Origin: Neocallimastix sp. 'constans'
Taxonomy: Eukaryota
DNA length: 64,000 nt
Direction of reading: 5' to 3'
Assembly: GCA_050613775.1 (NCBI GenBank)
Contig: JBODTK010000012.1
Location: forward strand, 434,001 to 498,000
This document shows positions 20,305 to 64,000 of the stretch, piece after piece. Under the pieces are notes generated by a model. The model made no database searches. It was not told the origin of the DNA and saw only the letters and a list, made by a program, of their open reading frames with translations. Both the position numbers and the translations under genes were made by a program. Each line of letters opens with the position of its first letter. The first letter of the stretch is position 1.

Positions 20305-20800
20305 TATTAATGTCCTCAATAAATGATTAGTTTATGTCAGAATATTTAATTTTTTTTTTTATTTTTTATTTTATTATTAATTGGAATTTAAATTTTTATT
20401 TTATTTTATTATTAATTAGAATTTAAATGTCCTCAATAAATTATTAGTTTGTGTCAGAATATTTAATTTTTTTTTTTTATTTTTTATTTTATTATTAATT
20501 AGAATTTAAATTTTATTTTATTTTATTATTAGTTAGAATTTAAATGTCCTAAATAAATTATTAGTTTGTGTCAGAATATTTAATTTTTTTTTATTTTATT
20601 ATTAATTAGAATTTAAATGTCCTCAATAAATGATTAGTTTGTGTCAAAATATTTTTTTTTTTTATTTTTTATTTTATTATTAATTAGAATTTAAATTTTT
20701 TTTTTATTTTTATTTTATTATTAATTAGAATTTAATTTTATTTATTTTATTATTAATTAGAATTTAATTTTTTTTTTTTTTTATTTTTATTTTATTATTA
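20305..20800. repeat. Compound tandem repeat upstream of GH5 copy 1 (4 copies of aatgtcctcaataaa..ttagtttgtgtcagaat)
   Basis: Units start near 20310, 20426, 20544 and 20616, interleaved with ttattattaattagaatttaaat units. The mirror region is 23545-23878. Confidence 0.85.
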
Positions 20801-25999: not shown

Positions 26000-26024
26000 A
26001 TGAAATGAAATAATATAGGATAAC

Positions 26025-26055
<31 letters not shown>

Positions 26056-26957
26056 ATTAAGTCCTTATATAGTTTAAATGCAAAAAAAAGTAAAGATAAA
26101 ATATTAAAAAAAATTTTATAATTTTTTATTATTTTTGTAAATATATATATTTGATATATATATATATATATTAAAAAATACTTTATAATTTTTTATTTTT
26201 TTTTTTTTTTGTAAATATATATATTTGATATATATATTAAAAAAATTTTATAAATTTTTATTTTTTTTGTAAATATATATATTTGATATATATATATTAA
26301 AAAAATTTATTAGAGCAATCATTAATATCTTATATATAATTTGTAATATAACAATATCGAATAAGGATTTTTTCTTTTTAATAATAATAATAAAAATAAT
26401 TAAAAGATTGAAAAAAATAATATATATATATAATCTTTATTTTTATTTTAAATTTGTAAAGTGTTGGGGAGTGTTTATAAATAAATTTATTTATTATAAA
26501 TTATAAATTCAGTTATAATATGTATATATATATATTAAAAAAAACAATTTTACTATAATACTAATAAAAATTAGAAAGATTTTTTAATATTTAGGAGTTC
26601 ATTTGATTTAGTTTCATCACATAAAATATTTATATATTTATTTTTATTGTATTTAATTCCTATCCTAAAAAATATTATATATAAATAGTTTACTATATTT
26701 ACATATTTATTAATTTCACGTTATATCATTTAAAAAAAAAAAATTATTTATTCTATTCTTTTTTTTTTTTTTTATTATTATTATTTTTTATGTGTAATCA
26801 TAGCAATAAAAGGATATTCTCGGATGGGAATTCTTTTATAGTCTTTCACTCTTAACATTTTATTTACCTTTTCATTAATTTTTATATGATAACTTTACAG
26901 AAAATAATTACATTAGTCCGAATTATATTAATTATATTAATTATATTATTATTATTT

Positions 26958-27065
26958 TTTTATCTTTTTTTTTTATTATTTTATTACATGTATTTTATCA
27001 AATATTTAATTAATAAAGATGAAACAAGTTTGTTGCCGTTAAAAAAAAAAAAAAAAAAAAAAAAA
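26958..27065 (+). mobile_element. Short poly(A)-tailed retroposed insertion
   Basis: Absent from the left arm (~13570-13580); ends in ~A25; flanked by ATTATTATTATTT at 26945-26957 and 27066-27078. Confidence 0.6.
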
Positions 27066-27299
27066 ATTATTATTATTTGTAAATTAATCTTGTTTTATAT
27101 GAAATACATTATTTTATTTATTTAAATAATTTCATTGTATTATTAAAAAGTTATAAATAATATTAATAAGATAAATTTTACTGTACATTTTAATCTTTGT
27201 TATTAACAAAAATCATTATTATATGTTAATAAACCTTAAATATTGAAATAAAAATTATTAAATACAATCAATAATAAGTTGTTTATTTTATATTTTAAT

Positions 27300-28438
27300 G
27301 TTAGTCTCTATAATATTACTCGAGGATTGAGAATAATTCTTCTTTCAGCTGTCTGTGTTATTTCTCAATTACGATGCTTTAGAAAATGGAAAAACTCATC
27401 ATGTATTATTAATTATCTCACTAATAATATTTCTACTATGTCACATTACTCATGAACTAAAGAATCAAGGACTTTGGATAAGAAATTAAATGATAAAAAA
27501 ACAAGTGAAATAAAAATGTTTTATTGGGAAAGAGAAGTTTTCAAACCTTCAAAAGCTAAAAAAGCAATTATTTACAAGGAGAATGATTTTGGATTTATTT
27601 CAGAAATCAAAAACTTAACATTTCGACATCCTAAATATCAGTTGGGATTCTTTTGGATTTCTCGAATTAGGTGTGATTTTAAATTTGACATTAGTATTTC
27701 CATTAAAGAAAAGTAGTCTCAGAAGATTGCCCTAAATGTTGCCCTTGTTGTGGTGTTATTGTATCTAGCTTTTCTCACTGGATCTTTGCCTGTAAAGAAT
27801 TGGAAAATTACAGAAATAAGTCTTTACCTTTTCTAGATGATCTCTTTTTGAAGTTTGCAATGATAATTGAACAAAAATCCTTGGATGTTTCTTTTGATTC
27901 AGAAAAGGATTATGATAATAATATTTATTACTTTATATTGAGTGCTCCTCTTGGGGGTTCAATATATGAAAAAATTAAACTTAATGATGGGGAACAAAGA
28001 TAATTAGTTGACAATATTTTTAAACAAAGTTCAACTTCGTTGATTATTCCGTATTTTGTGGGAATTGCGGAGTTTCTAACAAACGTAATACCTTTAATTT
28101 GTCGATCTTTTAAATTGATGATGAAATGATATTCCGTTGAATCTACCGTTGCCGAGAGCGTCGACGTCGAAATGATAAGGTATGGATTTTCACCTCCCAG
28201 TGAAAAAACTAATACAGATTCGTTAGATAACACTAATACTGAAATTATTACTCGCAATAATGGACGTGGTGTTATCATCGATGAATGGGAAAATTTAGAG
28301 GCTATTGCTTCTAACGCACTTTTATAATTTTATGATATATAATATTTTATTTCATGTATTTTATTATTTTTTTTTTAAAATCATGTAATTTTATTATTAT
28401 TATAAATTAAAAAAATTTTTCTATAAGTCAAAAAAAAA
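27300..28438 (+). mobile_element. 5'-truncated copy of the same LINE family as 13763-17424
   Basis: Aligns to the reverse complement of ~13775-14889 and ends in an A-tract. Flanked by atattt(t)aat; the left arm has the empty site at ~13360-13370. Confidence 0.88.
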
Positions 28439-28714
28439 ATATTTAATTTTTTCATTTATTTAAATATAAAATTTATATATTTATAATGTTATTATTTACT
28501 TTTTTTCTTTTCTAAATTTTAAATTATTATTTCTTGAATAAAAATAAAAAAAAAATAAAAAATAAAAAAATAAAAAATAAAAAATAAAAAGAATTCCTAT
28601 TTTTACTATTATTACACAAAACAATAAAATTAACAAAAATAAACACATTGATTTTTAAATTTGCTTATTTTATTATATATTTATTTAATGTAATCTTATT
28701 TATATATTAAAATA

Positions 28715-29277: not shown

Positions 29278-32050
29278 GTCCCCCCTCAAATCAAACTTTC
29301 CTGCTGATAGTTTGATTTGATATTTAATACTTAGTTAGTTATTTCAATTGAAAATTCATTCCTGAATCTTTCCATAAGTGACCTGTTCAAGTACTTTGTA
29401 AATCCATCTGCCAGGTTATCTTGTGTTCTTACGTAAGAAAGTTTTATTTTCTTATCATTAATTAATTCTCTTATATGATGGTATCTAATATCTATGCGCT
29501 TTGATATTCTATTTGTAGATTGATTTATGCTATTATGGATTGCTGCCTTATTGTCGACATTAATGTTTACACAATTTAAATTAATATTAAGTTCCTTAAA
29601 TAAGTTCATGCACCATAGAGTGTGTTTTGCACATTCACTAAGGTTGTAGTACTCTGCTTCTGCTGTGGATGTTGCAACACATTGTTGCAGTTTTGAACAC
29701 TAATTTGTTGGTGAGTCTCCAACAATAAACAGAAAACCTGAGGTTGATCTTCTTGTTTTAAGATCTCCTGCATAATCCGCATCTGCCAATATTCTTAATG
29801 AATCCTTTTTTGAAAGTTTGATACAACAATTAATTGTTCCTTTTGGTATCTAAAAATTCTTTTAACATATTCCTAGTCTTCTAGGGTCTAGTACTTGTGG
29901 CTAAATAGAGTAGGTCTCTTATAGCGCTTCTATACTCCGTATCATTAAATTTCATTTTTCTTAGTTGATCATCCTCTATCGGATTTGGCGCCCTTACGGG
30001 TTTACTTGTGTTTAACTCAAATTTCTTTAATAAATCATTTATATATCCTTTTTGGAGTAATATATATCAGTCTTGGAATCTTACAAATTTTATTCCGATA
30101 ACCAATCTACATTTCCTGCATCCTTTATATTAAAGACGCTCTTAATTAAATTTTTGTTTAGTTTTATATCTTCTTTATTTCCTGCTATCAATATGCCGTC
30201 TACATATACTAATAAGATGCAAACTATTTTACCATTATTGTCTTGTTTAATATGTATACAAGGTTCACTAATTAGTCTCTTGAATTTCATTTGTAGTAAT
30301 TCTTTATTTAATTTATTCGTTCTATTCCCTTCTGGATTGTTTTAAACCATATAACGCTTTATTTAATTTCCAGTAACCCTTTCTATAAGATGAGTGCCCT
30401 TCTGGTGCTCACATTTAAATTTCTCCGTTCAGAGTTGCATTAAGGTAAGCAGAATTAATATCTATTTGTACAATTTCAAAATCCTTTTGAACCGTAATTG
30501 CTGTTATTAATCGAAGAGAGTCTTGTTTTAATGTTGGTGAAAATGTTTCTTTATAGTCGATTCCATATTTTTGACTGAAGCCTCTTGCTACCAGTCTAGC
30601 AATTCTTTTTATGATATTGCCGCAATCATCCTTTTTATATTTAAAGACCCACTTTGATGACACTAAGTTTGAATTATGTGGGATGTTGAATACTAATGTG
30701 TTAGGTTCACTTAAATTATTCTTTGCTGTTGTTTTTTTCATACTTGTTTTTTGTTTCCTGATACTAGGGTCTGTGGTTCAGTTTTCTGTTTTTTTCCTAT
30801 TTGTTAATATTTGATTGATTTCTCTGTCTGTATTATTAATAAATGGGATGCTTGTGGTGTTGTATGGTGGGACACTCCCCCTGATTTCGGAAGGAGGAAG
30901 AAAATTTGATTGAATATTAGATAGGGAAAATGTAATCCTGGAATTAGCAGCGCTATCCTCGAAAAATTCAACAGTACGGGAAAAAATAATTTTATTGTTG
31001 ATAATATCCAAAATTTTATAGGTTTTAGGATTTTCACTATAACCAAGAAAAATTCCAGGTGAAGCATTGTTATCAGACTTGCTCCTAAAAGACTTAGGAA
31101 TGTAGAAGAAAACTCTACAACCAAAAACTTTAAAGCGAGAATAGTCTACTTTGAAATTTGTGATAATTTCGAAAGGAATTTTATTATTAATGCCACGATG
31201 AGGTATACGATTATGAATATAATTAGCTGTATCTGCAGCATATTCCCATAATTGGTGGCTTAATTGTGAGTCACTAAGAAGACTTTGGAATTTGATATTG
31301 CTGAATTCTGTACCATTGTCTGTTTGGATGTAAGAGATAGTCTTGTTTAAAATGTTTTTAACTTTGATATACCATGTATAGAAAATGGAGAAAACGTCAC
31401 TTTTGTTTAAGATAAAGAATACCCATCCAAATTTGGAATAATCGTCAAGGAAGGTAAGGATGTATTTGTTTCCATGTAGAGATTCATTTAGTGGTCCTAT
31501 TAAGTCCATATAGATTAAAGTGAAACATGATTTCATACCGATATGAATTCTGTTAAATGGTCTGTTTTTCAATTTGGATTGTGAGCAAATGTCACAATGA
31601 TTATCTATATTAATTTCAATAATTTGTTTTTAATGGTATTGATACCAAAATAGCCTAATCGTCGATGCCATAATTTAATTTTATCAATCTTGGCAATATT
31701 ATATGTATTGGTAATAGTTATTGACTTTTGTTGGTATTGATTGAATGTTAATGGCTTACTAGAGGTCCAGATTGTGAAAATGTGTTGATTATTAGCTATT
31801 ATGTCAGAGATTCGGATACCATTATTGTCATATATAGAGACTGCTGATTTATTTCGAATATTATGAAAGACGATTTTGAACTTTAGTTGTAAAAGCCTAC
31901 TAACTGACATGATATTCTTTTTAACTCCTGGAATATAATATATATCGTTCAATGTGAATTTCTTTTTGCCAATATATCCAATAAATTGTCCTGAAATTAC
32001 TGCTGTCATTAATTCTCCATTAGCTGTAGGGATAGGTTCATTACACTTCT
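29029..32050 (-). mobile_element. Degenerate 5'-truncated Ty1/Copia LTR retrotransposon (PR remnant, IN, RT, RNase H, PPT, 3' LTR)
   Basis: LWHRRLG; YMDLIGP...LDDYS...TDNGTEF; SKWVFKYK...ARLVARGFSQKYGIDY.ETFSP; LVYVDG; VDNKAAI...IDIRYHHIRE...NLADGFTK. IN precedes RT. Many stops and frameshifts, plus an internal deletion in the integrase. Confidence 0.95.
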
Positions 32051-34916: not shown

Positions 34917-35378
34917 TTTTTTTTTTTTTTTGCTTTAATTAATATTATAATAATAAGAATAAATAATTAAATAATTATTACATATATTTAATATTTTATG
35001 AAAATTAAATTAATATATATATATATTTATCAATTATTGTATTATATTTATTTTAGTAAATATTATTACTAATTATTTATTAATAAGCCATTTAGAAATT
35101 CTAATCAGTAGTACTTCATATATAAACATCAAGTAAATTTCAATCAATTTCATTTTATAAAGTGAACTATAAGATTATTATTATAAATAAATAGTTCATA
35201 AAAATTAAAAATAGATGAAAAAATAACAACCAAAAGGAAACTTTAATGTATATAAAAAATATATATTTTTTCAATATTTAGTATAAAAAAAAATTGTTTA
35301 TTCACAAATTGATTGTTAAAAATTAAAAACAAACGAACAAACAAACAAATAAACTAATAAATAAATAAGAAAGAAAAA

Positions 35379-38300
35379 ATGATTTCAATAAAAAAAAGAA
35401 ATTCCTCTAAAAGTAAATTAAATAACTTTGCTATAACAAATTACAATGACAATATATTTATTGCGAGTAAAAAGGGAAAATTAAAAATTATTAAATTTTT
35501 AGTAGAAAGAGGTATTGATGTCGATGTTATCGACGAAGAAGGCAATACTATTTTAATGTTGGCCTGTCAACGTGGTCAATTAAAAATTGTTGAATATTTG
35601 GTTTCAAAAGGGGCAAATATTAACTATAAAAATGAATTAGGTAAGACGGCTTTTATGTTCGCTTGTGAAAGCGGTCATTTAAATATTGTTAAATATTTAT
35701 TTAATCAAGGAGCTGATATTAAAGCTCGTGATAAAAATGGTTATACTGCCTTCATTTATGCTTGTCAATTTAATGATACTCCTGAAGTAGTGGACTTTTT
35801 AGTATCAAAATTTGTTAATATATTTGATACCAATAGTTTAGGCCAAAATGCTTTAATGTTGGCCTCGAGTGAAGGTCATATTAATATTGTTAAATATCTT
35901 TCTGGTCAACATCAAATGGACGTAAATAAAAGAGATTCAGAAAAGAGGACAGCATTAATTTTAGCTGCTCTTAATGGTCATGAAGACGTTGTTCGTTATT
36001 TAATTTCTAGAGGGGCAGATGTAAATAGTATGGATCATCGTTTAAATTCAGCATTAATGTTAGTAGCAGAAACAGGTAATGTAATTATCACTCATTTATT
36101 AATTAGAAATCATGCTAATATTAATGCTAGAAATTGTTATGGAGATTCCGCTTTACATGCAGCTTGTAATGAAAATCATATAGAAATCGTAAAACTTTTA
36201 GTTGAAAATGGAGCTGATATTGATGATAAAGAAAAGAGTGGTATGACTCCATTAGCATATGCTAGTAGAGCAGGCCATCTTGATATTGTTAAATATTTAG
36301 TGGAACATGGTGCCAATATTAATCTTCAAGTTTCAAATGGCTATACCCCATTATTGTTTGCCATTGAAAATGGTCATACAGATGTCGTAGAATATTTAAT
36401 TGAACAAAAAGCAGAATTCAATATAAACAATCAAAAATATCAAAATGTTTTCCTTGAATCAAATTCTGAGATAACTAATATAATTATTAATCATTTAGCT
36501 TCAAATAATTTAGAGAGTAATGATTGGTCAAATTTTAATACTATTATGAAGAATGATCGTATGTCTTTCTTTGATTACTTAATTAAGGAAGGAATTCAAA
36601 ATGGTTCATTTAATAATTATAATATTTTCATGGATTCTTGTATTCATGGCTATAAACCTATTATTGAACTTTTACTTCATCATCAAATAGATATTAATGT
36701 TCAAGATAGCCTTGGTCGTACAGCTTTAATGTATGCTACTGAAAATAGCCAATGGGAAATTATTAAACTATTAGTAGAATATGGTACTGATGTTAACATT
36801 TGTGATGGTAATGGATGGACAGCTTTAATGTACGCCTGTAGTAAAAATAAAAGTATAATCGTTGAATATTTAATAGACAATGGGGCTGAAATTAATACTG
36901 CTAATTCCGAAGGATGGAATGCCTTAATGTTTTCTTGCGTTTCAGGAAATGAAATTATTATTAAATATTTAATTCAAGAGGGAGCTGATGTTAATTCAAA
37001 AAGTAAAGATGGACTCTCTCCATTACTTCTTGCTTGTCAATATGGCAATTTAAATATCGTTAATTATTTAATTAAGCATTCTGCAAATATTATGGTTAGA
37101 GATAAGGAAGGTAAAACCGCACTTATGTATGCTACCGAATATGGATTTCTTTCTATTGTAGAATTATTAATTAAGGAAGGTATTGATGTGAATGCTGAGG
37201 ATCAATATGGTGATACGGCCTATACTATTGCTAAGCGTAAAGAATTACGTGACATTAAAAAATTGGTAAAGAAGGCGATGACGGATAATATTGATTTTGA
37301 TTATGATTTTGATGCCAGCCAACAGGATCAGTGGAAAGAATTTCATGTAAATATTAAGTATGGTGATATAGAAGCTGTTAAAGAATACGTGGAACAAGGT
37401 GAAGGGGATATTAAGGAGGATACTGAAGATCATTGGTCACCCCTTCATATTGCTGCCTATTATAATCAATTAGATATTGTAAAATATCTTGTGGAGAATG
37501 GATTTGATGTTAACATCAAATGTAATGGTTTTACCTCACTTTATTTTGCTTGTCGTAATTGTAATATGGATATTGTGAACTATCTTTTAGAGGAAGGAGC
37601 AGAGGTGAATACCATTAATCAGAATCGTTTAACCGCATTAGAAATTGCCTGTTATTCAAATGCTTATCAAATTATGAAAATCTTATTCCGTCAAGGTGTC
37701 GATATGGAAGTCAATCCATACTTGGAATATAATCTTTTAAAGATTGCTGTTGATAATACAAATTTACGTATGATGAAACTCCTATTAAATGTTGGTGAAA
37801 TAGATATCAATGCCAGAAATGCTAATGGTTCCACGATCTTACATTACATTGCTCATAAAAATATTTATATGATGGCCAATGCTTTACTTAAATTAAGTGT
37901 GATAGATGTAGATTGTGAGGATGACTTTGGTAATACCCCACTTCATATTGCATGTGAATATGGGCATGTACATTTAATACAACTTTTAATTCATTATCGT
38001 GCCGATATCAATTTTAAAAATCATCATTCTTATACCCCACTTCTCATTGCCAGTGAGAATGGGCAAATTGATGTTGTTCGTGTATTAGTGGAAAAACGGG
38101 CAAAATTAGAAAGTACTAATGATCAACATTTGAATGCACTTCATATAGCATGTAAAAATAATAATCGCAAAATTGCCCAAATTCTTTTGGATCATAAAGC
38201 TAATATTAATGCTGCAACTATTACGGGCTGGACCCCTCTTCATATTGCCGTTCAACATCAATACCCATTATTATTGAAATGCCTTCTCAATTATAAACCT

Positions 38301-38834
38301 GATTGTAATTTAGAGACCAATAATCGTCTTACACCGATGGATATTGCTTACCGTAATAAGGATGGCTATGCATTAAGCATTTTGGAAGGATATTACAGCC
38401 AAAATCTTGAAATTATTTCCGATGCCAATACCATTATTAATGAAATTAAAAATGGTAATTTATATGTAGCTTCTAATATGATTCGATCAGGAGAAATTTC
38501 TTTGGATTATGTTGATGAATATGGATGGACTGCACTTCATTGGGCCAGTTACAAAGGTTACACCGAGGTTGTTCGAGATTTAGTGAACTATGGTGCCGAT
38601 TTAGAAGCGAAAACAAGGGATACATTTGATGAACGTGAGCCATTGAAAGGAAAAACCGCTAAAGATCTTGCAGAGATGTATCAATATAAGGATATTGAAG
38701 CTCTCATTAAATCGAAGATCACTGAACTTACTATCTGTAAAATTATTAATACGTCTTCTGAAATGGCCGAAAATGCTAAAGATTTTAATGAAGCTTTCAG
38801 TGGATTAAATGATGCTCTAAAAGCTAAAAAGTAA
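35379..38834 (+). CDS. Intronless ankyrin-repeat protein, 1151 aa (roughly 27-30 ANK repeats)
   Basis: Recurring G.T(A/P)L..A...G...IV.YL...GA..N units along almost the whole length. Confidence 0.96.
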   Translation: MISIKKRNSSKSKLNNFAITNYNDNIFIASKKGKLKIIKFLVERGIDVDVIDEEGNTILMLACQRGQLKIVEYLVSKGANINYKNELGKTAFMFACESGHLNIVKYLFNQGADIKARDKNGYTAFIYACQFNDTPEVVDFLVSKFVNIFDTNSLGQNALMLASSEGHINIVKYLSGQHQMDVNKRDSEKRTALILAALNGHEDVVRYLISRGADVNSMDHRLNSALMLVAETGNVIITHLLIRNHANINARNCYGDSALHAACNENHIEIVKLLVENGADIDDKEKSGMTPLAYASRAGHLDIVKYLVEHGANINLQVSNGYTPLLFAIENGHTDVVEYLIEQKAEFNINNQKYQNVFLESNSEITNIIINHLASNNLESNDWSNFNTIMKNDRMSFFDYLIKEGIQNGSFNNYNIFMDSCIHGYKPIIELLLHHQIDINVQDSLGRTALMYATENSQWEIIKLLVEYGTDVNICDGNGWTALMYACSKNKSIIVEYLIDNGAEINTANSEGWNALMFSCVSGNEIIIKYLIQEGADVNSKSKDGLSPLLLACQYGNLNIVNYLIKHSANIMVRDKEGKTALMYATEYGFLSIVELLIKEGIDVNAEDQYGDTAYTIAKRKELRDIKKLVKKAMTDNIDFDYDFDASQQDQWKEFHVNIKYGDIEAVKEYVEQGEGDIKEDTEDHWSPLHIAAYYNQLDIVKYLVENGFDVNIKCNGFTSLYFACRNCNMDIVNYLLEEGAEVNTINQNRLTALEIACYSNAYQIMKILFRQGVDMEVNPYLEYNLLKIAVDNTNLRMMKLLLNVGEIDINARNANGSTILHYIAHKNIYMMANALLKLSVIDVDCEDDFGNTPLHIACEYGHVHLIQLLIHYRADINFKNHHSYTPLLIASENGQIDVVRVLVEKRAKLESTNDQHLNALHIACKNNNRKIAQILLDHKANINAATITGWTPLHIAVQHQYPLLLKCLLNYKPDCNLETNNRLTPMDIAYRNKDGYALSILEGYYSQNLEIISDANTIINEIKNGNLYVASNMIRSGEISLDYVDEYGWTALHWASYKGYTEVVRDLVNYGADLEAKTRDTFDEREPLKGKTAKDLAEMYQYKDIEALIKSKITELTICKIINTSSEMAENAKDFNEAFSGLNDALKAKK

Positions 38835-51810: not shown

Positions 51811-52792
51811 TAGTTTTATAATTTTAATAATCACTTTTAATTTTCATAATGTTTAATAAATTTTAATAAAGATTTAAAATTAATTATTAGAAAACAAGTG
51901 TTCTAATAAACCAAATTTTTAGTGTTATTTTAATAAAACATTTTTAATTCGTAAATAACTTATACAGTTATTATTTGAATAAATTGAAATTATCACTTTT
52001 TAATTCTATAATAAAATTAAGATAATTTCTAAAATATATCATTTGTGATACGAAACCACTATAAATATCATATTTAGGTAGAATCTTTAGGTTAAAGAAA
52101 TACTTAAATATTATTGGTCAGCAGTAATTTAATAGTAATATATATAATTTTATAATAATAATTTTAAACGGAGAATTCTTTTATTTATTAGTTTATACTT
52201 ATGGTAAATTAATTCGCATAAATAGCTATTTTTTTATATTTTAGTTTATGTAACGGAGGTGCTTCTATTGTAACGGCGGGACGTGATATAGAAACACAGA
52301 AAGGAAAAAACTCAATAGGTTTACACTATCTTTATAAATAATTCGTTTTATTAGAAATATTTTTTTATTAATTATAAAATTTAAAATAATTATTAATATT
52401 AATCAACAAGGTAATATTTCGAATTACTTATACGTTAATTATTATTAATAAAAGCACGAAGAAAAATATTTTCATTCGTGAAGTTCGCACTATTTATACT
52501 TTTAACGGAAAAACAGTTTTAACATGTAAAAATAATTTTAAAGAAATATTTAGAAATATGTTTGTAATAATTAATAATGTAAAGTTTCTAGAATATAGAT
52601 TTTAATTGATGAAAATGAATCTTATCAAAAAAGAATAAAATAATTTATATAATAAGAATTTCTAAATTCATTTCGGTTGAATTACGAACCGAAAGAATCT
52701 TTAACTTTCTATAATTTTATACAGAAAGAATATTCAAGAAGATATTATTAATAATTAATAAAATAATTAATAAAATAATTATTTATGCAAAA

Positions 52793-52865
52793 TGGGTTGA
52801 GGTGTGAGTCGAACCCATGAAGTATTGATCATGGTCAATGTAACTAACCATTGAACCAGAGTTCT
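52793..52865 (-). ncRNA. tRNA-like Pol III cassette (pseudo-tRNA/SINE head), not a canonical tRNA
   Basis: A box TGGTTCAATGG (52858-52848), stem ATTGA/TCAAT with a 6-nt loop CCATGA, B box GGTTCGACTC (52815-52806), 3' CCA then TTTT. The acceptor stem does not pair. Confidence 0.7.
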
Positions 52866-52879
52866 AATTTTACTAACTG

Positions 52880-53684
52880 TAATACAGAATGAACAAATAA
52901 TACTAATTGTGCTAGAATAATATAAATTATTCTAACCTTATAGATTATTCTAACCTTATAGATTATTCTATTCTATATAATTGGAACTTTCCAATATTCT
53001 TCAAATATTACTAAATAGAAATCTTAAGTTAATAAATCACTAATTAACTTATAATTCCTTTTTGAATTATCGATCCGATTCTATTATAATGTATTAAAAA
53101 TCTTTAGCCAAGAATATTGTCCTTGCCACTTAATATATTAATATTATATTTCTTTTGTATTATGTTATATTGAAAATAATCAAATCTATTTAATTAGTTA
53201 TTAAAATTTTCGTTATCAATTTAAATTTATTTTTAATTACTAAATTTAACTAAACCACAATAAAATATTCTGTATAATCTCTTTATTTTTATTTTATATA
53301 TATTAGTATTAAACTATTATTAAATAATTAATAATTCAATAATATATAACTACTATTTATAACAATAATATTATTAACTAAAATAATAATTCAATTTCAA
53401 TTTAAATGTTTTATTTATAAAAATAATTAGTAATTAGTTTATTAAAAAAATAGTTAGGCTTTACAAATTTTAATTTGATAAAAAAATATAAATACATGTA
53501 ATTTTAGTGAAATAAAATATAATCAATAACTTTCTTTTTATTAAATAAATAATTATATTATTATTTTTCTTTTATAAATTTAAATAAATAAATATTGATT
53601 TTAAAACAAATTATTTTTTTTTATTGTAATTTTATTATTTGTGTTAATTATTATTATATTCCTAAAATTATATGAACCATACCA
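52880..53684 (+). repeat. 5' LTR (TAATAC...ATACCA)
   Basis: Direct repeat of 59123-59927. Confidence 0.95.
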
Positions 53685-53692
53685 TGAAAAAT

Positions 53693-53710
53693 TGGTGGAG
53701 ATATCGGGGA
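53693..53710 (+). promoter_or_regulatory. Primer binding site, tRNA-Ala type
   Basis: TGGTGGAGATATCGGGGA resembles the complement of a eukaryotic tRNA-Ala 3' end (...CCCCGGCAUCUCCACCA). Confidence 0.8.
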
Positions 53711-54192
53711 ATATAATAATAAATTAATACATTGGGGATAAAATTATAATATTAATAAATAATTTTTCTAATAAAACAAATATTTTTTTAAAAAAGAAAA
53801 CAATTTTTATATTTTTAACTAATTATTATTAATTGTTAAAAATATTAATTAATATTAAATTAAACTAATATTCGTGCATAGATTTCCGGGTTAAGTTTAT
53901 CCTACATAGTAATTGGGCTAGTAGGCTCTGGACTGCTATTTTTTATATTGAAAATAGTAACCGTGGCACACGCGTGGCATGACACCTTTCAAGAGGTAAG
54001 CTGCACGTCAGATAGTGTGTACTATCAGATTGCACGATTATTATAATTTAATAAATGATTAATAATAATAAATAATTAATAATTTTATTAGTTAAAAGAT
54101 TTATTTTTTTTAATTTTTTTTTATTTTTACTTTTTATAACAATTTATACATTACGAGGTTTAGCATTCTATAGATACAATAAATTTTATTTA

Positions 54193-55110
54193 ATGAGAAC
54201 ATCCAGTACTTCCAGTACTCCAACAGAGAGTACTCCAGAAAGTAAGCTTAGCTTCCGAGAATTAAAGAAAGAATTAAAAGATTTTGAAAAGCTTACTAAA
54301 CAAAACCTAGACATCAATTCCTGGGCAAACGAGTTAAAGGCATGGATAAAATACCAACATATCAAGGATCCTGAAACTATTTTTACTGCTTGTATATTAA
54401 CGGCTTCTGGAGAACCAAGAGAAATTATCCAAGAACTAGAAGATGGAAATGACCTTATTGAAGATGAAGATTCTGATTTCGATAGCGATAGTGAAGGAGA
54501 AGATGATGAAGAAAGTGAATCTACTAGCACCTACCCAAGCCTTGATGAAATCATAAATCATCTGAAGACTTTCTATGGACTTAAAGAAGATCAAACCAAT
54601 TTGTTACGAGAATTGCGTTCCATGAAAATAAAGAAGAACGAGAAAGTTAAAGATTTTAATGTCCGTTATAGATCTTTGTACCATAAATTGGATAAAAAGA
54701 GAAGAAGAAAAATTAGTGTTTTAGATTATGCAGATTCCTTAACCAATAATCCCGACGCATGGAGAAAGGTTATGCTTAAAGACAATATTTCTATTACTAA
54801 AGCATTCGCTATAGCTGAAAAAGTTGATCGTTTATCTATTAAAAATAGTACTGAATATTATGATAAGACTCGTTACAATCTCCTTAACTCTAAAAGTAAT
54901 TTTAATAAGAACATTTCAAATGATTTTAACAAACCAAAAACCCACAAAAATGTATCTATAGAAAATCTCACTAACAAGATGAAAGAAATGAAAATTAGTA
55001 CTTGCTGGTTTTGTAGCAATGAAGGACATACCAAACGAAACTGTCCTAAATTAAATTCTATATTGGAAAATAACCGCATAAAGTTTTATGAAAATCATTT
55101 AAACCACTAA
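54193..55110 (+). CDS. gag: Gag (305 aa) with CCHC zinc knuckle
   Basis: CWFCSNEGHTKRNC; retrotransposon gag-like NEKVKDFNVRYRSL; acidic insert. Confidence 0.93.
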   Translation: MRTSSTSSTPTESTPESKLSFRELKKELKDFEKLTKQNLDINSWANELKAWIKYQHIKDPETIFTACILTASGEPREIIQELEDGNDLIEDEDSDFDSDSEGEDDEESESTSTYPSLDEIINHLKTFYGLKEDQTNLLRELRSMKIKKNEKVKDFNVRYRSLYHKLDKKRRRKISVLDYADSLTNNPDAWRKVMLKDNISITKAFAIAEKVDRLSIKNSTEYYDKTRYNLLNSKSNFNKNISNDFNKPKTHKNVSIENLTNKMKEMKISTCWFCSNEGHTKRNCPKLNSILENNRIKFYENHLNH

Positions 55111-55150
55111 AAGGGAGTAGAAGCACTCCCATCGTCAAAAAAATTGCTTC
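55098..55150 (+). promoter_or_regulatory. -1 programmed ribosomal frameshift signal (U UUA AAC + H-type pseudoknot)
   Basis: Heptamer 55098-55104 is in the gag frame; 8-nt spacer; stem GGGAGT/ACTCCC (55113-55130); loop GAAGC is complementary to GCTTC (55146-55150). Confidence 0.88.
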
Positions 55151-58100
55151 AGTCTGCCATCGTTCCAAAACAGTTGACTTAAAAGAAGATGATGATTATG
55201 AAGAAACTGCTGATTTCCAAGAAGGTACTACTACGGATTATTACGAAGATTTTGATGATGAGTCGGATGGTTCCAAAGAATTGGATTACTTAGTAAACGT
55301 TATAAAGAGAAAGGCAAATCCTAAAGACGAAGAGACTAGTGACCAAAGAGGAAAGAGGGTTCACCGTAGTCTAAGAGATGATCCTAAGCCAATAGTTACT
55401 CCAGGTTTACGAAAACAAAAAGAAAATCAATTAAGGGGAACATCGCGACCAGTCAAAAAGCCAACAACTCAATTACATCCTTCGATTATGGCTCAACCCA
55501 GAATAGAGAAAGAAAAGAGGATTGAGAAAGAGCTAAGAGATAAGGAAAGAGCTAGTACTAGTACTTCTGTGGAAAATAATAAAAATAGTAATGTTAATAT
55601 TATTAATGAAGAAACTTCTCAGGAAGGAAATAATTCTAAACAAACTTTAAATAAATTAATTCAAGAAAAATCATCAGAAAAGTCAACTGAAATTATGCCA
55701 ACTAGAATTCCAAAAAGAATACAAATGCAAACTGATTGTGATAGTTATGACGTGATCAAAGATTTAAACTCCAGTAATTGCAATATTACATTTGGACAAT
55801 TATTGGACGTTGCTCCAAAGATACGGTCTCAAGTATCACAAGGACTTAAATTAGAAAAGAATAATACTAAAATTTCAGGTGCAGTGGATAATATGTGTGC
55901 TACTACAATAATAACGAACAATATAGATCATACATATAAAAGTAAACATCATGAACCACAAGAAGATGATATTGCTATGGTTGATGTAATAGTAGATGGA
56001 GTTCGTGGTAAGGCTTTAATAGATTCATGTAGCAACTTAAGTATTATCACAAAGCAATTTTTAGATAAATTACCTTATCAGTATGAACCTATAGGAGTTA
56101 GTGCAGGACGAATACGTTTAGCAACAATGAATGATGATTACTCAGAAGATGTGTTAATCAAAGTTCCCGTAAAAATTAATGAACTAGAACTACTTGTTAC
56201 GTGTAGAATTATAGACAAGGAGGATCCATTCTATGATATATTAATCAACCTCAAAACTCAAATTGATAACCAGTTATTTATACATCCAATTAGATATAGT
56301 CTTTGTCGATTTAATGATCAAGGTTTAATTGAAGAAATTGCACCTATTAATAATGAATATGATGACGAAGAAAAATTATTATGTGTAATCAAAGCATTGA
56401 ATCACCAAGAAGCTAAGCAACAATTGAAAACGATTGAAGGATTACCACCCATAAAATATATATATGACACAGTTTTTCAAAGTACAATTAATTCAAATTA
56501 TAGAGAAGCTATTACTAAATTACTTGAAGAATATATTGATATAATTGTAACTTCTTCTGAAGAATTAACACCTTCAGATTTATCACCACACAAAATTATT
56601 CTTAAGGAAGGAGTTAAACCTATTAAACAAAAATTTTATCGACTTAGTAAATTAAAAACAGATATCTTAAAAGAAGAATTAACCAAACTCATATATAAAC
56701 GATTAATTGAATCTTCATGTTCAGAATGGTCATCACCAGTAGTACTTGTGCCTAAAAAGAACGGTAAATGGCGCCTGTGTATTGACCATAGGAAAGTAAA
56801 TGAAGCAACTAAGAAGGATTCTTATTCTTTACCAAATATTGAGGAAATTTTTGATAGCTTAGATGGAGCAAAAATCTTCTCAACATTAGATCTTTATTCC
56901 GGTTATCATCAAATATTAATGGATGATGATAGTGTTGAAATCACTACCTTTACAACTAAGTTCGGAAACTACCAATTCAAGGTAATGCCCTTCGGTTTAA
57001 CAGGTGCTCCAGCTACATTCCAAAGAGAAATGAACCGTATACTATTTCCCTTAATAGGAAAATGCGTCTATAACTTTATCGATGATATTTTAATCTACTC
57101 AAGAACTGAAGAAGAACACCTAGAACATCTTAAACAAGTCTTAGAAATATTCAAGGAACATAAGTTAAAAATCAATATTGAAAAATGTTCTTTCATGCAA
57201 ACTGAAGTAGAAGTACTTGGACATAAGGTATCCTCAGAAGGTTTAAGTCCATTGGAAAACAAAGTTGAAGCTATTAAAGAATGGAAGGCTCCCTCTAACA
57301 TTCATGAACTTCGATCATTTTTAGGAGCCATTGGATATTATAGAAATTTTATTAAGGACTTTGCAAAAGTTACTGCTCCTCTCTGCACTCTATTAAGAAA
57401 AGGTATTAAGTTTGAATGGAAAAAGGAACAAGAAGAAAGTTTTAAAATTCTTAAGGAAAGATTAATCAATGCCCCAATATTAAGATTTCCTAGATTTGAT
57501 AGAGAATTTATTATAAGAACAGATGCTTCCTATGATGGAATAGGAGGTGTGCTTTTACAAAAGGATGATGAAACTGGAAAGGAGCATCCCGTTCATTATA
57601 TTAGTAGAAGTTTATCTAAATCGGAAAAGAATTATGGAATTACGGATCTAGAAGGTGCTGCTCTAATTTACTGTATTAATAAATTAAAATCTTATATTAT
57701 GGGAAATCCTAAGCAAACTATAGTATATACAGATCATAGACCATTAATCGGATTACTTAAAAGTAAGGAACCACAAAATTCTCGTCATACTAGATGGTGT
57801 TTGACTGTCAGTATGTTAGGAATTGATTTACGATATGAAACTGGAAAGAATAATGTTGTCGCAGATGCTTTATCAAGAATGAAAAATGAAAAAGAAAAAG
57901 TTGTCTTAACAACACAAATTATCAAGGAACAAGATGAAAACCTGCTTTCAAGAACCATTAAGGAATTTATTGAAGAAAAATTTACGACAATTGATGGTGT
58001 GGACTACTTTGTTGATGGCAATAATTATAGAAAATTAGTTACAGATACAAAAGAAAAACTTCAATTAATTTTTCAAGCGCACAGTATAGGACACGAAGGC

Positions 58101-59099
58101 TATTACAAGACATATCAACGTTTGAAAAAGAGCTACTATTGGAACAATATGGTTAATGACATTAAGCGAATTATAGGTAAATGTGAAAAATGTCAATTAA
58201 ATAAATCTCAACCATACCCTGAACCAACGGAAGATAAACCAACTGAAGTGGAAGGACCATTTACACACTTAGGATTGGACATTATAGGACCTCTAAGTAA
58301 AACCAGAAATAATAATCAATATATAATCGTTGTGGTTGATTATTTTACTAAATGGGTTGAGGCAGAGCCCACTGAAAATGTTACTTCTCAGGATGTGATA
58401 AAATTTTTAATTAATGTATTTGCTCGACACGGTGTACCTCAAATTATCACTACTGATAATGGAACACAATTTACATCAGATATGACAAAAATCTTCCTTG
58501 ATTTATATGATGTATATGTTAAATTTATCACTCCATATCATCCTGAAAGCAATGGTTTAGTTGAGAATCGTAATAAAGAAATTGGAAAATTATTACGATT
58601 ACTAGGACAACAACACAAAGAATGGGATGAAATTTTACCATCTGCACTTTGGGCTTTAAGAACTACTAAAAACTCAATCATCAACCATTCAAGTTTTGAA
58701 TTAGTTTATGGAAGGGAGGACCAACAACCTTTTGACATTGCTGCCAGACCAACTAAGGGTATAAATAAGTCTTCTGACGAAATTCTACTGGAAAAATTTG
58801 TATCACACTACCAATGGGTAATGGAGGCCGCATCTAATATCAAAAATGCTTCGAAATATTGGGCTACTAGGAGAGAAGAAAAGACCAGTATGAATCAAGC
58901 TAAAAGAATAAAACCAGGTGATTTAGTACTAGTAAGAAATTTTAATCGAACTAAATTAGAACCTTACTTTGTTGGACCTATGAAAGTGGTAAAGAAACAA
59001 TTCAATACAGTCACTTTAGCCGATCCTGCTACTAATATACAAATGAATCGTAATGTTCATTTGAAAAATATTGTCAAGTTTAACTCAGCTTCTACCTAG
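55098..59099 (+). CDS. pol: Pol (PR-RT-RH-IN), entered from gag by -1 frameshift
   Basis: LIDSC protease; WSSPVVLVPKK, MPFGL, FIDD RT; TDAS...DALSR RNase H; HHCC + D-D-E integrase with GPM (GPY/F-like) tail; no chromodomain. Frame is open from TTTAAAC at 55098. Confidence 0.95.
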   Translation, partial: FKPLKGSRSTPIVKKIASVCHRSKTVDLKEDDDYEETADFQEGTTTDYYEDFDDESDGSKELDYLVNVIKRKANPKDEETSDQRGKRVHRSLRDDPKPIVTPGLRKQKENQLRGTSRPVKKPTTQLHPSIMAQPRIEKEKRIEKELRDKERASTSTSVENNKNSNVNIINEETSQEGNNSKQTLNKLIQEKSSEKSTEIMPTRIPKRIQMQTDCDSYDVIKDLNSSNCNITFGQLLDVAPKIRSQVSQGLKLEKNNTKISGAVDNMCATTIITNNIDHTYKSKHHEPQEDDIAMVDVIVDGVRGKALIDSCSNLSIITKQFLDKLPYQYEPIGVSAGRIRLATMNDDYSEDVLIKVPVKINELELLVTCRIIDKEDPFYDILINLKTQIDNQLFIHPIRYSLCRFNDQGLIEEIAPINNEYDDEEKLLCVIKALNHQEAKQQLKTIEGLPPIKYIYDTVFQSTINSNYREAITKLLEEYIDIIVTSSEELTPSDLSPHKIILKEGVKPIKQKFYRLSKLKTDILKEELTKLIYKRLIESSCSEWSSPVVLVPKKNGKWRLCIDHRKVNEATKKDSYSLPNIEEIFDSLDGAKIFSTLDLYSGYHQILMDDDSVEITTFTTKFGNYQFKVMPFGLTGAPATFQREMNRILFPLIGKCVYNFIDDILIYSRTEEEHLEHLKQVLEIFKEHKLKINIEKCSFMQTEVEVLGHKVSSEGLSPLENKVEAIKEWKAPSNIHELRSFLGAIGYYRNFIKDFAKVTAPLCTLLRKGIKFEWKKEQEESFKILKERLINAPILRFPRFDREFIIRTDASYDGIGGVLLQKDDETGKEHPVHYISRSLSKSEKNYGITDLEGAALIYCINKLKSYIMGNPKQTIVYTDHRPLIGLLKSKEPQNSRHTRWCLTVSMLGIDLRYETGKNNVVADALSRMKNEKEKVVLTTQIIKEQDENLLSRTIKEFIEEKFTTIDGVDYFVDGNNYRKLVTDTKEKLQLIFQAHSIGHEGYYKTYQRLKKSYYWNNMVNDIKRIIGKCEKCQLNKSQPYPEPTEDKPTEVEGPFTHLGLDIIGPLSKTRNNNQYIIVVVDYFTKWVEAEPTENVTSQDVIKFLINVFARHGVPQIITTDNGTQFTSDMTKIFLDLYDVYVKFITPYHPESNGLVENRNKEIGKLLRLLGQQHKEWDEILPSALWALRTTKNSIINHSSFELVYGREDQQPFDIAARPTKGINKSSDEILLEKFVSHYQWVMEAASNIKNASKYWATRREEKTSMNQAKRIKPGDLVLVRNFNRTKLEPYFVGPMKVVKKQFNTVTLADPATNIQMNRNVHLKNIVKFNSAST

Positions 59100-59109
59100 C
59101 TTGAGTCTT

Positions 59110-59119
59110 AGCGGGGGCA
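59110..59119 (+). promoter_or_regulatory. Polypurine tract
   Basis: AGCGGGGGCA, 3 nt before the 3' LTR. Confidence 0.8.
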
Positions 59120-59122
59120 TCT

Positions 59123-59927
59123 TAATACAGAATGAACAAATAATACTAATTGTGCTAGAATAATATAAATTATTCTAACCTTATAGATTATTCTAACCTT
59201 ATAGATTATTCTATTCTATATAATTGGAACTTTCCAATATTCTTCAAATATTACTAAATAGAAATCTTAAGTTAATAAATCACTAATTAACTTATAATTC
59301 CTTTTTGAATTATCGATCCGATTCTATTATAATGTATTAAAAATCTTTAGCCAAGAATATTGTCCTTGCCACTTAATATATTAATATTATATTTCTTTTG
59401 TATTATGTTATATTGAAAATAATCAAATCTATTTAATTAGTTATTAAAATTTTCGTTATCAATTTAAATTTATTTTTAATTACTAAATTTAACTAAACCA
59501 CAATAAAATATTCTGTATAATCTCTTTATTTTTATTTTATATATATTAGTATTAAACTATTATTAAATAATTAATAATTCAATAATATATAACTACTATT
59601 TATAACAATAATATTATTAACTAAAATAATAATTCAATTTCAATTTAAATGTTTTATTTATAAAAATAATTAGTAATTAGTTTATTAAAAAAATAGTTAG
59701 GCTTTACAAATTTTAATTTGATAAAAAAATATAAATACATGTAATTTTAGTGAAATAAAATATAATCAATAACTTTCTTTTTATTAAATAAATAATTATA
59801 TTATTATTTTTCTTTTATAAATTTAAATAAATAAATATTGATTTTAAAACAAATTATTTTTTTTTATTGTAATTTTATTATTTGTGTTAATTATTATTAT
59901 ATTCCTAAAATTATATGAACCATACCA
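59123..59927 (+). repeat. 3' LTR
   Basis: Direct repeat of 52880-53684. Confidence 0.95.
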
Positions 59928-61475
59928 ACTGTGATAAAGAATAGAATAATAATGATATTTTTAATTAAATTTTTAATAATTTATTATATAAAAATATATT
60001 ATTATATTCTTTACTATTAATAATTTTCTTATATTCTATATTAATAATTTTTATATTAGTTATATTTTATTATTTTTTTATATTAAATTTATGTAATAAA
60101 TTAATTTATATGATTGGTTTTAATAATGTAATTAAATAATATAAAATATGTATTATCCATATTATTTTATGAAGGGGGCCTTTCTGAGAAAAGAAATAGT
60201 AGAAATAGTAGTGATAATGAAATAGGAATAATAATTGAAAGGTTTCCCATATTGTTATAATAATAAATATTAATATTAATAAAGTTATTTTTAACAATAA
60301 AATAATTATATAATTTATAAATAATAAATATTTTTAATAATAGTTCTTTAAATAAAATTTATAATGTGTAATAATAAATTCTTTTAGTGTAATTTAGTAG
60401 TTATTTAATTTATCTATTTATTTAATGTTCACACTCCTTTTCTAATATGAACCTCAACAACTGAAGATTTCGTTACAGTTTAGTATAGTTAAAGAGAGAT
60501 ATTAATGTTTTATTATATTTATTGATTTATAAATTAGATGAATATATATATTTGAGATAATTAATTATAATATTTATATGTGTAATAATAATTGATGTAA
60601 TAATTAATAATTAATAATAAATAAAGAGAATATTAAAAAGATATATTTATTACTTTATTTTGTACTTTTGTATGTGTTATTTCTATTTAATATTAGAATA
60701 TATTATTTTGTCATAATTCCTTATTGTCATTGCCCATAACTAAATATTAATTTAGATACATAAATAAAATATCGTGCTACAGTATTTAAATAAAAATGGA
60801 AAATTGTTAATAAAATTATAATAAAATATAATAAAGAATTAATTAGTTAAATTATATATATCACAATAATAAATAATAATATAAAATTATTCAAATTTAT
60901 TTAATTAGTTAATAGCCAATAGGATTTAATTTATAGTAAATTAGAAGTATAAAAAGAAAAATTATTATAAATTTTTTAAAGGGTGGTTTTTTTGGAGAAA
61001 ATAGATATACATTAGTTAAAATAAATATATTCGGGGAATATATTTATTTATAAAAATAATATAGTAATAAGTTAGAAATAAATAGTTAATAAGATTTTTA
61101 ATAATATTTTATTATAAAATTGTATTACGACATAATAAATTAAATAAAATAAAACGACAAAACTATAATTCTTAAAATTCTGTTATAAAATAACGTGTGT
61201 AGTAATTATATATTTCTATATTAGAATATACTATTTTATTTTATACTATCTTGCTAACTCACAAAAATATTGATACTAAAAATATTAATAAAAAAATTAA
61301 TAAAATAACGTATCAAAATTTTGGAGCCCAACATGGGGGGAAGCAAGATTTAATAAAGAAGTATGAAAATAATAAGAAAATAATAATTACAAATTAATTA
61401 TTTAATAATAAACCATAATCTTATAATTTTTTTTTTTATATATTCATTATCATTAAAAATTACAAAAATCCTAAA

Positions 61476-62803
61476 ATGTTTAATGCGGCTAAATTGCAAA
61501 GAATCTTACCATTGTTAATCAACTATGGTAAAGATGTGGAAAGTTGGATAACAGATTTTTCAAAAACGATGGAACTTTATGATATAATGGAACTTCGACG
61601 CATTTTTACATGGGCTAAAGAGGCCGTGGAAGAAGATACTCAAGGCGCATTAAATTCATTAATAAAAGGAAAAGGTGACTCAATCAGATAATCCTACATT
61701 AAAGGAGATTCAAGATACAATAGAAGAACATTTACATATAACTGAGAATGATAAATGTTCTGTTCTTAAATCTTTAAAAATTAATGAAAACGAATCGTTA
61801 AAAAAGTTTAATTACAAATATAAAAAATTATATAATAAACTCAGTTTGGAATATAGAAGACTTATTTCGGTCAAAGATTATACAAATGCTATTAGTTCTC
61901 GAGTATTTCCCTATTCAAGAGTTATGATAGCGGAATGTGAAACAATAAATGAAGCATTTAAAATAGCTGAAGTAGCTGAAGAAGCTGAAAAAGAAATATC
62001 CAATGCAAATCAAAGGAGAAAAATTAATAATAATATGGGAACAAACATCATGTTTACTCAAAATCATACTAATAATAATGTATTATTGAATCACCCCTTT
62101 TTACGAAAATCTTCACTCAAGACAACTACCAATGAATCAAGATGGAAATAATACCTTTATTAGAGAAAACAATTGGAATTTTAGAGCTAGCTCATGGAAC
62201 AATAATAACTCTAGGAATCCAAATTATTCGTATCATGCGGTAAACTTAAGAAATAATAGAAATTATTATTCAAATAACAGTAATAATTACATTAATAGAA
62301 TGCCAAGAAGGAATTCAATAAAATGGATATAATAATAAAATCAATTATGATAGGCATTCGAACAATAACAAAATCAACAATCCTTATATGAATTTTAATA
62401 AAATGAATAATACGAACAAAATGAGTAATAATCAATTACTCAATGAAGGAGAAGAAAACCAAAATAATATTGATTTAAAAAATATAAATAATATGATGAC
62501 TAATAATAATAAAGAATATAATAAACAAATGACTAATGGTAACACAATTAACACTAATAATATGACTCAATCGTTTAGCTACCAAAATAGGAAAAAAGTA
62601 TCATAATAGAACAGAAAACAACAATGTCATTAATACCTTAGTAACCAAAAATAATAATAATTTTAATGATGATAAACAATTATCATGTGAATTGTTATCG
62701 TTGTACATTGGAGGGACATAGAGCTTCAGAATGTCCGTACAAATTCAAACAATTGGCTGAAATGGAAGAACAGGGTTTGAGTAATAAACCTTTAAACCAA
62801 TAA
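61476..62803 (+). pseudogene. gag: Decayed gag of the older Gypsy element
   Basis: Fragments DVESWITDF..., LKSLKINENESLKKFNYKYKKLYNKL (compare LRSMKIKKNEKVKDFNVRYRSLYHKL); CYRCTLEGHRASEC knuckle at 62693-62734; stops and frameshifts; ends P-L-N-Q-* at TTTAAAC. Confidence 0.88.
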
Positions 62804-63800
62804 ATGGGAGAAGGATAACTTCCATTAACCAAACCAAAAAAATAATGTTCAAAAATAATGACTCATGTAACAATAAAAATAATATAATGACAATGGTAGA
62901 TGATCAAACAATACTACTAATAATTAATAATAGTATTAATGAAAAACAAAATTGTAATTACCTTAACATAAACAATAATAATAATACTACACAAAATATA
63001 TTAAATAGACCAATTGAAATTGTAACAGCAGCTACTCGAAATTCAAGAAATAATATTAGCAAATATAATGAAAAGTCATACAATAGAAAAGAAGTGAGAT
63101 TTAATTTAAAAGACAATCCAAAACCAATACAAACGGCAGCTATGAGTCATAATAATATTAATAAGAATAATAATAGTAATAATAATTATAATATTAAAAA
63201 TAAAAATAATACCAATTATAGTAATACGAATGCTAATAACAATTATAATAATATTAATAATCATAATAATAATATGAATAATGATCATGAAAATAATAAT
63301 ATGAATAATAATAATAAAATTAATTATAATATAGATAATTATAATGGCAATAATAACGACAGTAATAATGAAGAAAATAATATTTATAATACCTTTAAGG
63401 AAAATATTGACATAAATAATGATGATTATATTACTAATAATATAAACACTAGTCAAACAGTTGAACTAGGAAGTATAGAATCTAATGAATTGTAATCATG
63501 ATAGAAGAATCTGAAAATAATGAAAACAATGGTGATGCTGATGAAAGTAATAATATTAAAAATCATAATAAGTCCTTATTATGATAATGTAGAGAATTCC
63601 ATTAGAGCAAATAATAAAAATAAGAATGAAGCTCCTAATAAAAAAAAATTGTAATACGCAAAAACTAGAGTATCTTGATCCTTCTTTTATCACAAAAAAA
63701 AAATATTAGAAAAGTTAAAAACAAAAATAAAGAAGAGAGAATTAAAGATATAAAAAAATAAAATGAAAGAAATGAATACCAATACCAAGACAAGTGAAAC
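62791..63800 (+). pseudogene. Asn-rich N-terminal pol remnant of the older Gypsy; no protease or RT visible before AT-rich DNA resumes
   Basis: Follows the frameshift site; KEVRFNLKDNPKPI resembles KRVHRSLRDDPKPI of the intact element's pol N-terminus. Confidence 0.6.
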
Positions 63801-64000
63801 TCCAATATATTATTTTTCTAAATTTTTTGATTTTTAAGAACTTTTTAGAAACTTTTATTTTTTATCTTTTAATAACTTAAACTTTTGAAAAAAAAATATA
63901 AATATGTGTAAAATTCATGATAAAAAATATTCTTTCTTTGTGTTTTTTATTTTAATTCTTTAGTTAATAAAACTTAATTTTTAATAAAACTTTTTGTAGA

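Follow-up and report, generated by a model that had tools for sequence, protein, structure and literature searches.

Small-RNA promoters in the long terminal repeats (LTRs) of retrotransposons have been described mainly for short non-autonomous elements. In Cassandra, the LTR carries a 5S-type RNA polymerase III (Pol III) promoter and the element RNA spans from the 5S unit of one LTR to that of the other (PMC10886601). [quoted passage not shown] Their autonomous partners are expected to use Pol II LTRs without tRNA-like units, and tRNA-like parts are noted to be present in 'not a few' Repbase LTRs, those outside TRIMs being left undescribed (PMC10886601). Among Gypsy elements that insert next to tRNA genes (tDNAs), the target-site duplications (TSDs) of Ty3 (S. 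cerevisiae) lie within 20 bp of the mature tRNA 5' end (PMC6673722), Tj1 (S. japonicus) inserts 5-11 bp upstream (PMC4600332) and DGLT-A (Dictyostelium) 13-33 bp upstream, with 10-11 bp for Dp_DGLT-A.3 (PMC5006619, PMC5911963). The present analysis concerns a 64,000-nt stretch of Neocallimastix sp. 'constans' (GCA_050613775.1, contig JBODTK010000012.1, positions 434,001 to 498,000; hereafter the window), in which four retrotransposons, named D, A, B and C, are nested and a tRNA-like Pol III cassette lies in the LTR of A. The reading that we favour, with somewhat more confidence than doubt, is that this cassette is probably active as a Pol III promoter and that B and then C, elements of a chromodomain-less Gypsy lineage, landed upstream of it, likely tethered by TFIIIB.

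Anatomy of the nest

In the original prediction, excision of a second, nested Gypsy element at 52880-59931 was said to rejoin a 2218-bp segment bounded by TGATACG and CGTATCA, which was taken to be one LTR of an older Gypsy element. The excision and its boundaries were reproduced, as were the primer-binding site 6 nt after the segment, at 61322, and the broken gag that follows; the nested element (C) is intact, with identical 805-bp LTRs (805/805 positions), reverse transcriptase (RT), RNase H and integrase (IN). The 2218 bp are instead accounted for, as an exact sum, by D (1036 bp), A (645 bp), B (528 bp), the TSD GTTTA (5 bp) and the TSD ACTG (4 bp). The components of the nest are the following.

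52046..52248, plus strand: left part of the 5' LTR of element D, starting TGATACG
52244..52248, plus strand: left copy of the 5-bp TSD GTTTA of element A (right copy at 60478-60482)
52249..52879, minus strand: solo LTR A from a multi-copy family, bases 15-645 as counted in the LTR's own sense
52876..52879, plus strand: 4-bp target ACTG, at -11 to -14 from the cassette +1, with repeats at 59928-59931 and 60460-60463
52880..53684, plus strand: 5' LTR of element C, 805 bp, with the primer-binding site from 53693
54076..55110, plus strand: gag open reading frame (ORF) of element C
55092..59099, plus strand: pol of element C (RT, RNase H, integrase), with no Pfam chromodomain and 41 aa from a GPY/F-like motif to the end
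59123..59927, plus strand: 3' LTR of element C, preceded by a polypurine tract
59932..60459, plus strand: solo LTR B, 528 bp, TG...CA, with a 3'-terminal motif common to C and its relative L008
60464..60477, minus strand: first 14 bp of LTR A, severed by the insertions of B and C
60483..61315, plus strand: right part of the 5' LTR of element D, ending CGTATCA
61322..61339, plus strand: primer-binding site of element D
61476..63806, plus strand: broken gag and start of pol of element D, with stops and frameshifts

LTR A is 645 bp long, with inverted ends TGTAACG/CGTTACA and the TSD GTTTA on both sides. The 5' LTR of D amounts to 1036 bp (52046-52248 plus 60483-61315), and no second LTR of D was found in the window.

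Contigs from four runs (X1, X4, X5 and X13) of the 24 listed were aligned over positions 51980-53000 only, runs with small shares (X20-X24) being set aside; the right-hand junctions (59927-61315) were placed from the loose-end letters of these contigs and the window sequence. Part of 52046-52879 is present in 20 of the 24 listed runs, from 13 studies, and the sources include faecal and sheep-gut metagenomes. Loose contig ends at 52879 (six contigs in X1, one in X5) continue with the 14 letters found at 60464-60477. One contig of X13, an RNA run in which the presence of LTR A does not establish its transcription, spans 52249-52879 and stops at 52249; one X4 contig departs at 52237 and continues with letters located at 60479, and in an X4 contig element D runs uninterrupted across the insertion site of A. 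The loose ends therefore redraw the locus as D, solo A, solo B and C in place of one LTR, and a polypurine tract joined to 52046 in an X5 contig identifies this position as the true LTR start. The nest has three pairs of TSDs; A entered D, B and C entered A, and the cassette reads in sense from base 29 of LTR A.

That the 2218 bp form a single LTR of the older Gypsy element, carrying an antisense tRNA-derived unit, is accordingly very improbable. The 7-bp inverted ends, the primer site and the gag on which it was built are real, but two nested LTRs are marked out by TSDs and inverted ends inside the segment, D is found uninterrupted in X4, and L053, a relative of D (71% identity over 751 nt, with 75-81% identity between gag pieces), has no cassette in its LTR, which is short and agrees with that of D in its ends and in the primer site position. 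One X1 contig fuses the left flank of D (52046) to the LTR start of C (52880), with a 23-nt side and a depth of 7.5, and the left flank of D itself has high depth in X1, contig depth not being equated with copy number; the joint may mark another hotspot that the elements share, or may be a chance match of AT-rich sequence.

The box cassette and its carrier LTR

The following features were located in LTR A.

52793..52865, minus strand: tRNA-like type 2 Pol III cassette with degenerate stems and a predicted +1 at 52865 (LTR base 29)
52848..52858, minus strand: A-box-like motif, at LTR base 36 here and in the relative L001, counted from the terminal TG
52806..52815, minus strand: B box, 43 nt from the start of the A box (44 nt in L001)
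52627..52632, minus strand: first T6 run 3' of the cassette, a likely Pol III stop, as is the T4 run at 52792-52789
52491..52498, minus strand: TATA-like box, conserved in L001
52447..52461, minus strand: conserved block 3' of the TATA box, the likely start of R, nearly complementary to 52268-52259

The +1 was assigned by tRNA numbering from the A box, and the A/B-box consensus applied agrees with the description given for Helenus except at one A-box position (PMC10886601). Two B-box matches were found in the window, one of which has an A box upstream, making this the only box pair. No such pair arose in 5000 resamples of the LTR (0/5000) or in 100 resampled windows. Metagenome contigs were scanned with a two-box pattern fixing 22 of the 34 box positions, and five loci were returned, of which only L001, from another metagenome, is a relative of LTR A (71% identity over 335 nt outside the cassette, E 2e-28). 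The other four, L002-L005 (41-43% GC), were dropped as unrelated to LTR A; at the pattern match they have in common a long palindrome that leads into a tRNA-like 3' half, and ARAGORN called no gene in them. Between LTR A and L001, the A box with its linker matches at 18/19 positions and the B-box region at 14/15, the arm between the boxes at 11/22 and the rest of LTR A at 304/522 (58%). The contrast is inflated by the way in which L001 was found, and Fisher tests of box conservation (p about 1e-6 to 7e-6) were discounted for this ascertainment; of the 12 box positions left free by the pattern, 10 match in L001. Near 52850, four X4 contigs have a different A-box variant and upstream sequence, and this third variant suggests a third cassette-bearing family.

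ARAGORN called no gene in the window or in 14 loci, and with Rfam neither a 10.5-kb sequence nor the two isolated cassettes matched a tRNA at E up to 10, so that the description 'tRNA-derived' rests on box sequence and spacing. Neither the LTR A copy nor the L001 copy of the cassette folds into the cloverleaf of a tRNA gene, with paired acceptor, D, anticodon and T stems. Position 52828 is A here and G in nearly all other copies, as judged by depth (X1 16982.8/17217.4, X4 16560.6/16655, X5 232.6/232.6, X13 18.8/18.8). A meaningful CAT anticodon was rejected because the neat stem around its 6-nt loop needs this private A. Of the cassette as originally proposed, the A and B boxes and the broken acceptor stem stand, whereas the neat CAT-loop stem does not; a hairpin that had been noted near 52672-52693 was confirmed (z -3.75) but is not conserved in L001. 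It had also been argued that a D family without the cassette would leave a standalone short interspersed nuclear element (SINE) or tRNA pseudogene next to which the elements landed. L053 does lack the cassette, and the tRNA-like length and the T-run at the end would suit such a unit, but this explanation is hardly credible either: the cassette occupies a fixed offset within a TSD-flanked LTR in two diverged sources, and neither a TSD nor a tail of its own was seen.

The sense of LTR A was taken from the purine tract and the coding strand. The tract adjoins the TGTAACG end of A both in X5 and in L001. On the cassette strand of L001, a gag-pol ORF of 1409 aa ends 327 bp upstream and is followed by a purine tract like that of X5. 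A therefore reads on the minus strand of the window, and the cassette lies in sense orientation where U3 begins; only with respect to D is it antisense, and a role as a source of antisense RNA was dropped. Downstream of the cassette lie T4, T6 and T5 runs, then the TATA-like box, the conserved block and AATAAA signals. The T-runs inside LTR A make an internal-promoter role for the element RNA unlikely, as they do an RNA reaching from one LTR to the other in the manner of Cassandra, from which A also differs in having an A/B-box rather than a 5S-type promoter (PMC10886601). The original proposal of a Pol III arrangement within an LTR thus holds for LTR A, but not for the LTR of the older Gypsy element. 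The box unit of LTR A is probably a working Pol III promoter.

The 3' end of LTR A consists of a doubled CGTTACA (52249-52275, minus strand; about 935-960 in L001), with two X5 contigs stopping at the inner terminus and an X13 contig at the outer one. The copies are 10 nt apart, and these 10 nt can pair almost completely with the conserved block 3' of the TATA box (completely in L001), a likeness to self-priming of the Tf1/Tj1 type that may indicate self-priming in A.

The gag-pol of L001 (a feature of L001 and not of a window copy) is a single ORF in Gypsy domain order with SH3_Tf2-1 and a C-terminal Chromo domain, as in chromoviruses (Tf1/sushi-like), to which A is also alike in its 5-bp TSD. 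Family A is possibly autonomous. A competing explanation, which we consider unlikely, is that A is a non-autonomous element of the Helenus/TRIMp3 type whose tRNA-like unit promotes the genomic RNA, that the link to the gag-pol of L001 is a chimera formed via a shared 3' region, and that B and C still target the unit. Like fungal Helenus, A has a tRNA-like sequence in the LTR, boxes that are kept (with the ascertainment caveat above) and stems that are not, no functional cloverleaf, a 5-bp TSD and a solo LTR (PMC10886601). The LTR-like end 5' of gag in L001, a single contig, does not align with its cassette-bearing LTR, so that the link of A to a chromodomain element could be chimeric; one Helenus has internal ends, and not LTRs, in common with its helper (PMC10886601). 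However, LTR A measures 645 bp against 323 bp for the longest Helenus LTR, and two such LTRs alone exceed 1263 bp (PMC10886601). T4 lies directly 3' of the unit, T6 follows 183 nt from the start of the B box and further T5-T6 runs come after it; the Pol II signals, namely the TATA-like box and the downstream blocks, are conserved; the one internal region linked to A is that of a chromodomain Gypsy element, whereas fungal Helenus is tied to Copia (PMC10886601); and L001 has no second LTR between the purine tract and pol. A was not filed as Helenus because it lacks the size feature, but part of its working may be Helenus-like. Neocallimastix and chytrids receive no mention in the main text of PMC10886601, nor do five gut-fungal genus names in the supplement examined, and no publication on such LTRs or on tRNA-targeted Gypsy elements in gut fungi was found in searches that covered few subscription journals and did not cover Repbase.

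The target shared by elements B and C

Element C has the paired LTRs, primer-binding site, polypurine tract, RT-RNaseH-IN order and TSD of a Ty3/Gypsy element, and the relatives of its pol include Orpsp1 gene models among the 120 matches listed. Its LTRs begin with TA (52880 and 59123), while the relatives L007, L008 and L053 begin with TG after a similar purine tract. The gag of C ends CAT TTA AAC CAC TAA (about 55097-55110) with pol in the -1 frame, and T TTA AAC fits the pattern of a -1 slippery heptamer. Apart from the 3'-terminal motif, also present in L008, the LTRs of B and C are dissimilar, which identifies two separate insertion events. C entered at the exact 4-bp target of B, ACTG, at -11 to -14 from the predicted cassette +1, and both insertions at the locus (2/2) lie less than about 20 bp upstream of the type 2 Pol III unit. 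This is the distance range used by Ty3, Tj1 and DGLT-A, and the idea of the cassette as a landing pad is therefore supported, from one locus, and strengthened relative to its first statement by two insertions, not one, at the same 4 bp. The young C is promoter-proximal with solo B behind it, as a tether on the cassette side predicts.

B and C are thus alike to Ty3, Tj1 and DGLT-A as Gypsy elements inserted upstream of a type 2 Pol III unit at a distance of a few bases, and C is further alike to DGLT-A in lacking a chromodomain and in its short integrase tail (41 aa in C, 32 aa in DGLT-A; PMC5006619). In contrast, the TSD is 4 bp for B and C and 5 bp for Ty3 and Tj1; Tj1 is co-directional with its unit whereas B and C both face away from theirs; and the known elements target host tRNA genes, whereas B and C target a degenerate unit in the LTR of another element (PMC6673722, PMC4600332, PMC5006619).

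Under the favoured reading, TFIIIC would bind the boxes and load TFIIIB over the first bases of LTR A, and the integrase of B or C would dock on TFIIIB and cut at the start site. Each newcomer would land promoter-proximal and displace the older one, leaving young C beside the cassette and solo B behind. More tentatively, A would be the LTR of a chromodomain Gypsy element whose Pol II transcription starts from the TATA box, some 370 bp downstream, and the Pol III unit would yield a short RNA only and not the genome of the element. The unit might be retained as a portable chromatin barrier shielding the Pol II promoter of A, by analogy with tDNAs, for which barrier activity has been shown in fission yeast (PMC2040200). 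tDNA and TFIIIC barriers are host loci (PMC2040200, PMC3395662); the unit of A could likewise bind TFIIIC and Pol III but would be borne by an element. An insertion at bases 15-18 of a 3' LTR would deprive A of its end sequence. The full picture, in which A is an autonomous chromodomain Gypsy element with a tRNA-derived TFIIIC/Pol III unit beginning both LTRs, as a portable barrier against heterochromatin around the element's Pol II promoter, and a second Gypsy lineage hijacks the unit via TFIIIB, is held only as a doubtful proposal.

Beside the ascertainment of L001, the tRNA searches and the unmatched ends of L001, several observations weigh against these readings. The case for targeting comes from one locus, as no other insertion flank of B or C was recovered in the scans. 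Element C is without a chromodomain, the part by which the Ty3 integrase contacts Brf1 (10.1101/2021.07.27.453949). No A/B boxes were found to the left of D, its visible side, though D belongs to the same broad lineage as B and C, and the X1 joint of the D flank with the start of C could mean that C also inserts away from Pol III units. Moreover, no B box was found in the flanks of the gut-fungal chromodomain Gypsy elements L052, L065 and L066, of which only L066 has a long LTR stretch, and a Pol III-type unit at the LTR start of a chromovirus was not found in the literature searched either.

Some of these points also bear on the possibility that an old SINE or tRNA insertion left the cassette behind as an inert remnant, with the site of B and C shared through a sequence preference of the integrase or a preference for LTR ends. 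It would fit the absence of a tRNA call, the bias in finding L001 and the position of D away from any Pol III unit on its visible side, and C beside B could be a tandem-type insertion. Yet conservation extends to all 22 pattern positions and to 10 of the 12 bases free of selection, whereas the remainder of the LTR is 58% identical, the target falls in the narrow interval of known Pol III-targeting elements, and the younger element is promoter-proximal, the last a weak point as it is one of two choices. An inert cassette is therefore given little credence, and the favoured reading is that of a working unit targeted by B and C.

Further searches, neighbouring features and meaning

A viral collection gave no match to the L001 protein, the cassette pattern or the LTR start of element C, and one distant locus with the element C alignment as query. 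A GTDB scan returned eight loci, none with an insertion site adjoining a tRNA; among them, L007-L009 are AT-rich relatives of element C binned in bacterial metagenome-assembled genomes (MAGs). Matches of LTR A to 57 MAGs were short and AT-rich, occurred in 31 and covered the cassette in none, and were taken as noise; cassette patterns had no match in three MAGs and a single, unrelated match in five MAGs. L007, L008, L009, L052, L053, L065 and L066 (G001-G003, G041) are all AT-rich Gypsy contigs in bacterial MAG bins, relatives of the window elements, and are likely contamination from gut fungi.

The whole window has 19.5% GC, with GH5 cellulase and ankyrin genes present. Its other features are as follows.

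2-2782: ORF with a PSP1 domain
13378-15907: endonuclease-bearing fragment resembling a long interspersed nuclear element (LINE), with an inverted partial copy at 26755-28467 (88-94% identity)
17425-20618 and 23545-26762: 3.2-kb inverted duplication, 97% identity, with a GH5 cellulase ORF in each arm
30778-31629, minus strand: ORF with integrase and SH3_retrovirus domains, likely a Copia-type remnant
35361-38834: ankyrin-repeat ORF, 1157 aa
49571-49870: 57-bp tandem array within a 196-aa ORF

For annotation, the locus is a warning that nests can pass for long 'LTRs' in these AT-rich genomes, and mobile A/B boxes may mislead the annotation of tRNAs and Pol III genes. The class of LTRs with small-RNA promoters would be widened by a conserved A/B-box unit in a long LTR of Pol II type, for which another reason for the retention of the boxes, for example a barrier, would be needed. 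The stacked insertions at -11 to -14 would constitute a natural TFIIIB footprint on a degenerate unit, and suggest that anaerobic gut fungi harbour Pol III-targeted Gypsy elements with an integrase unlike that of Ty3. If the proposed relationship is true, landing pads for one retrotransposon are spread by another, which the first then disables.

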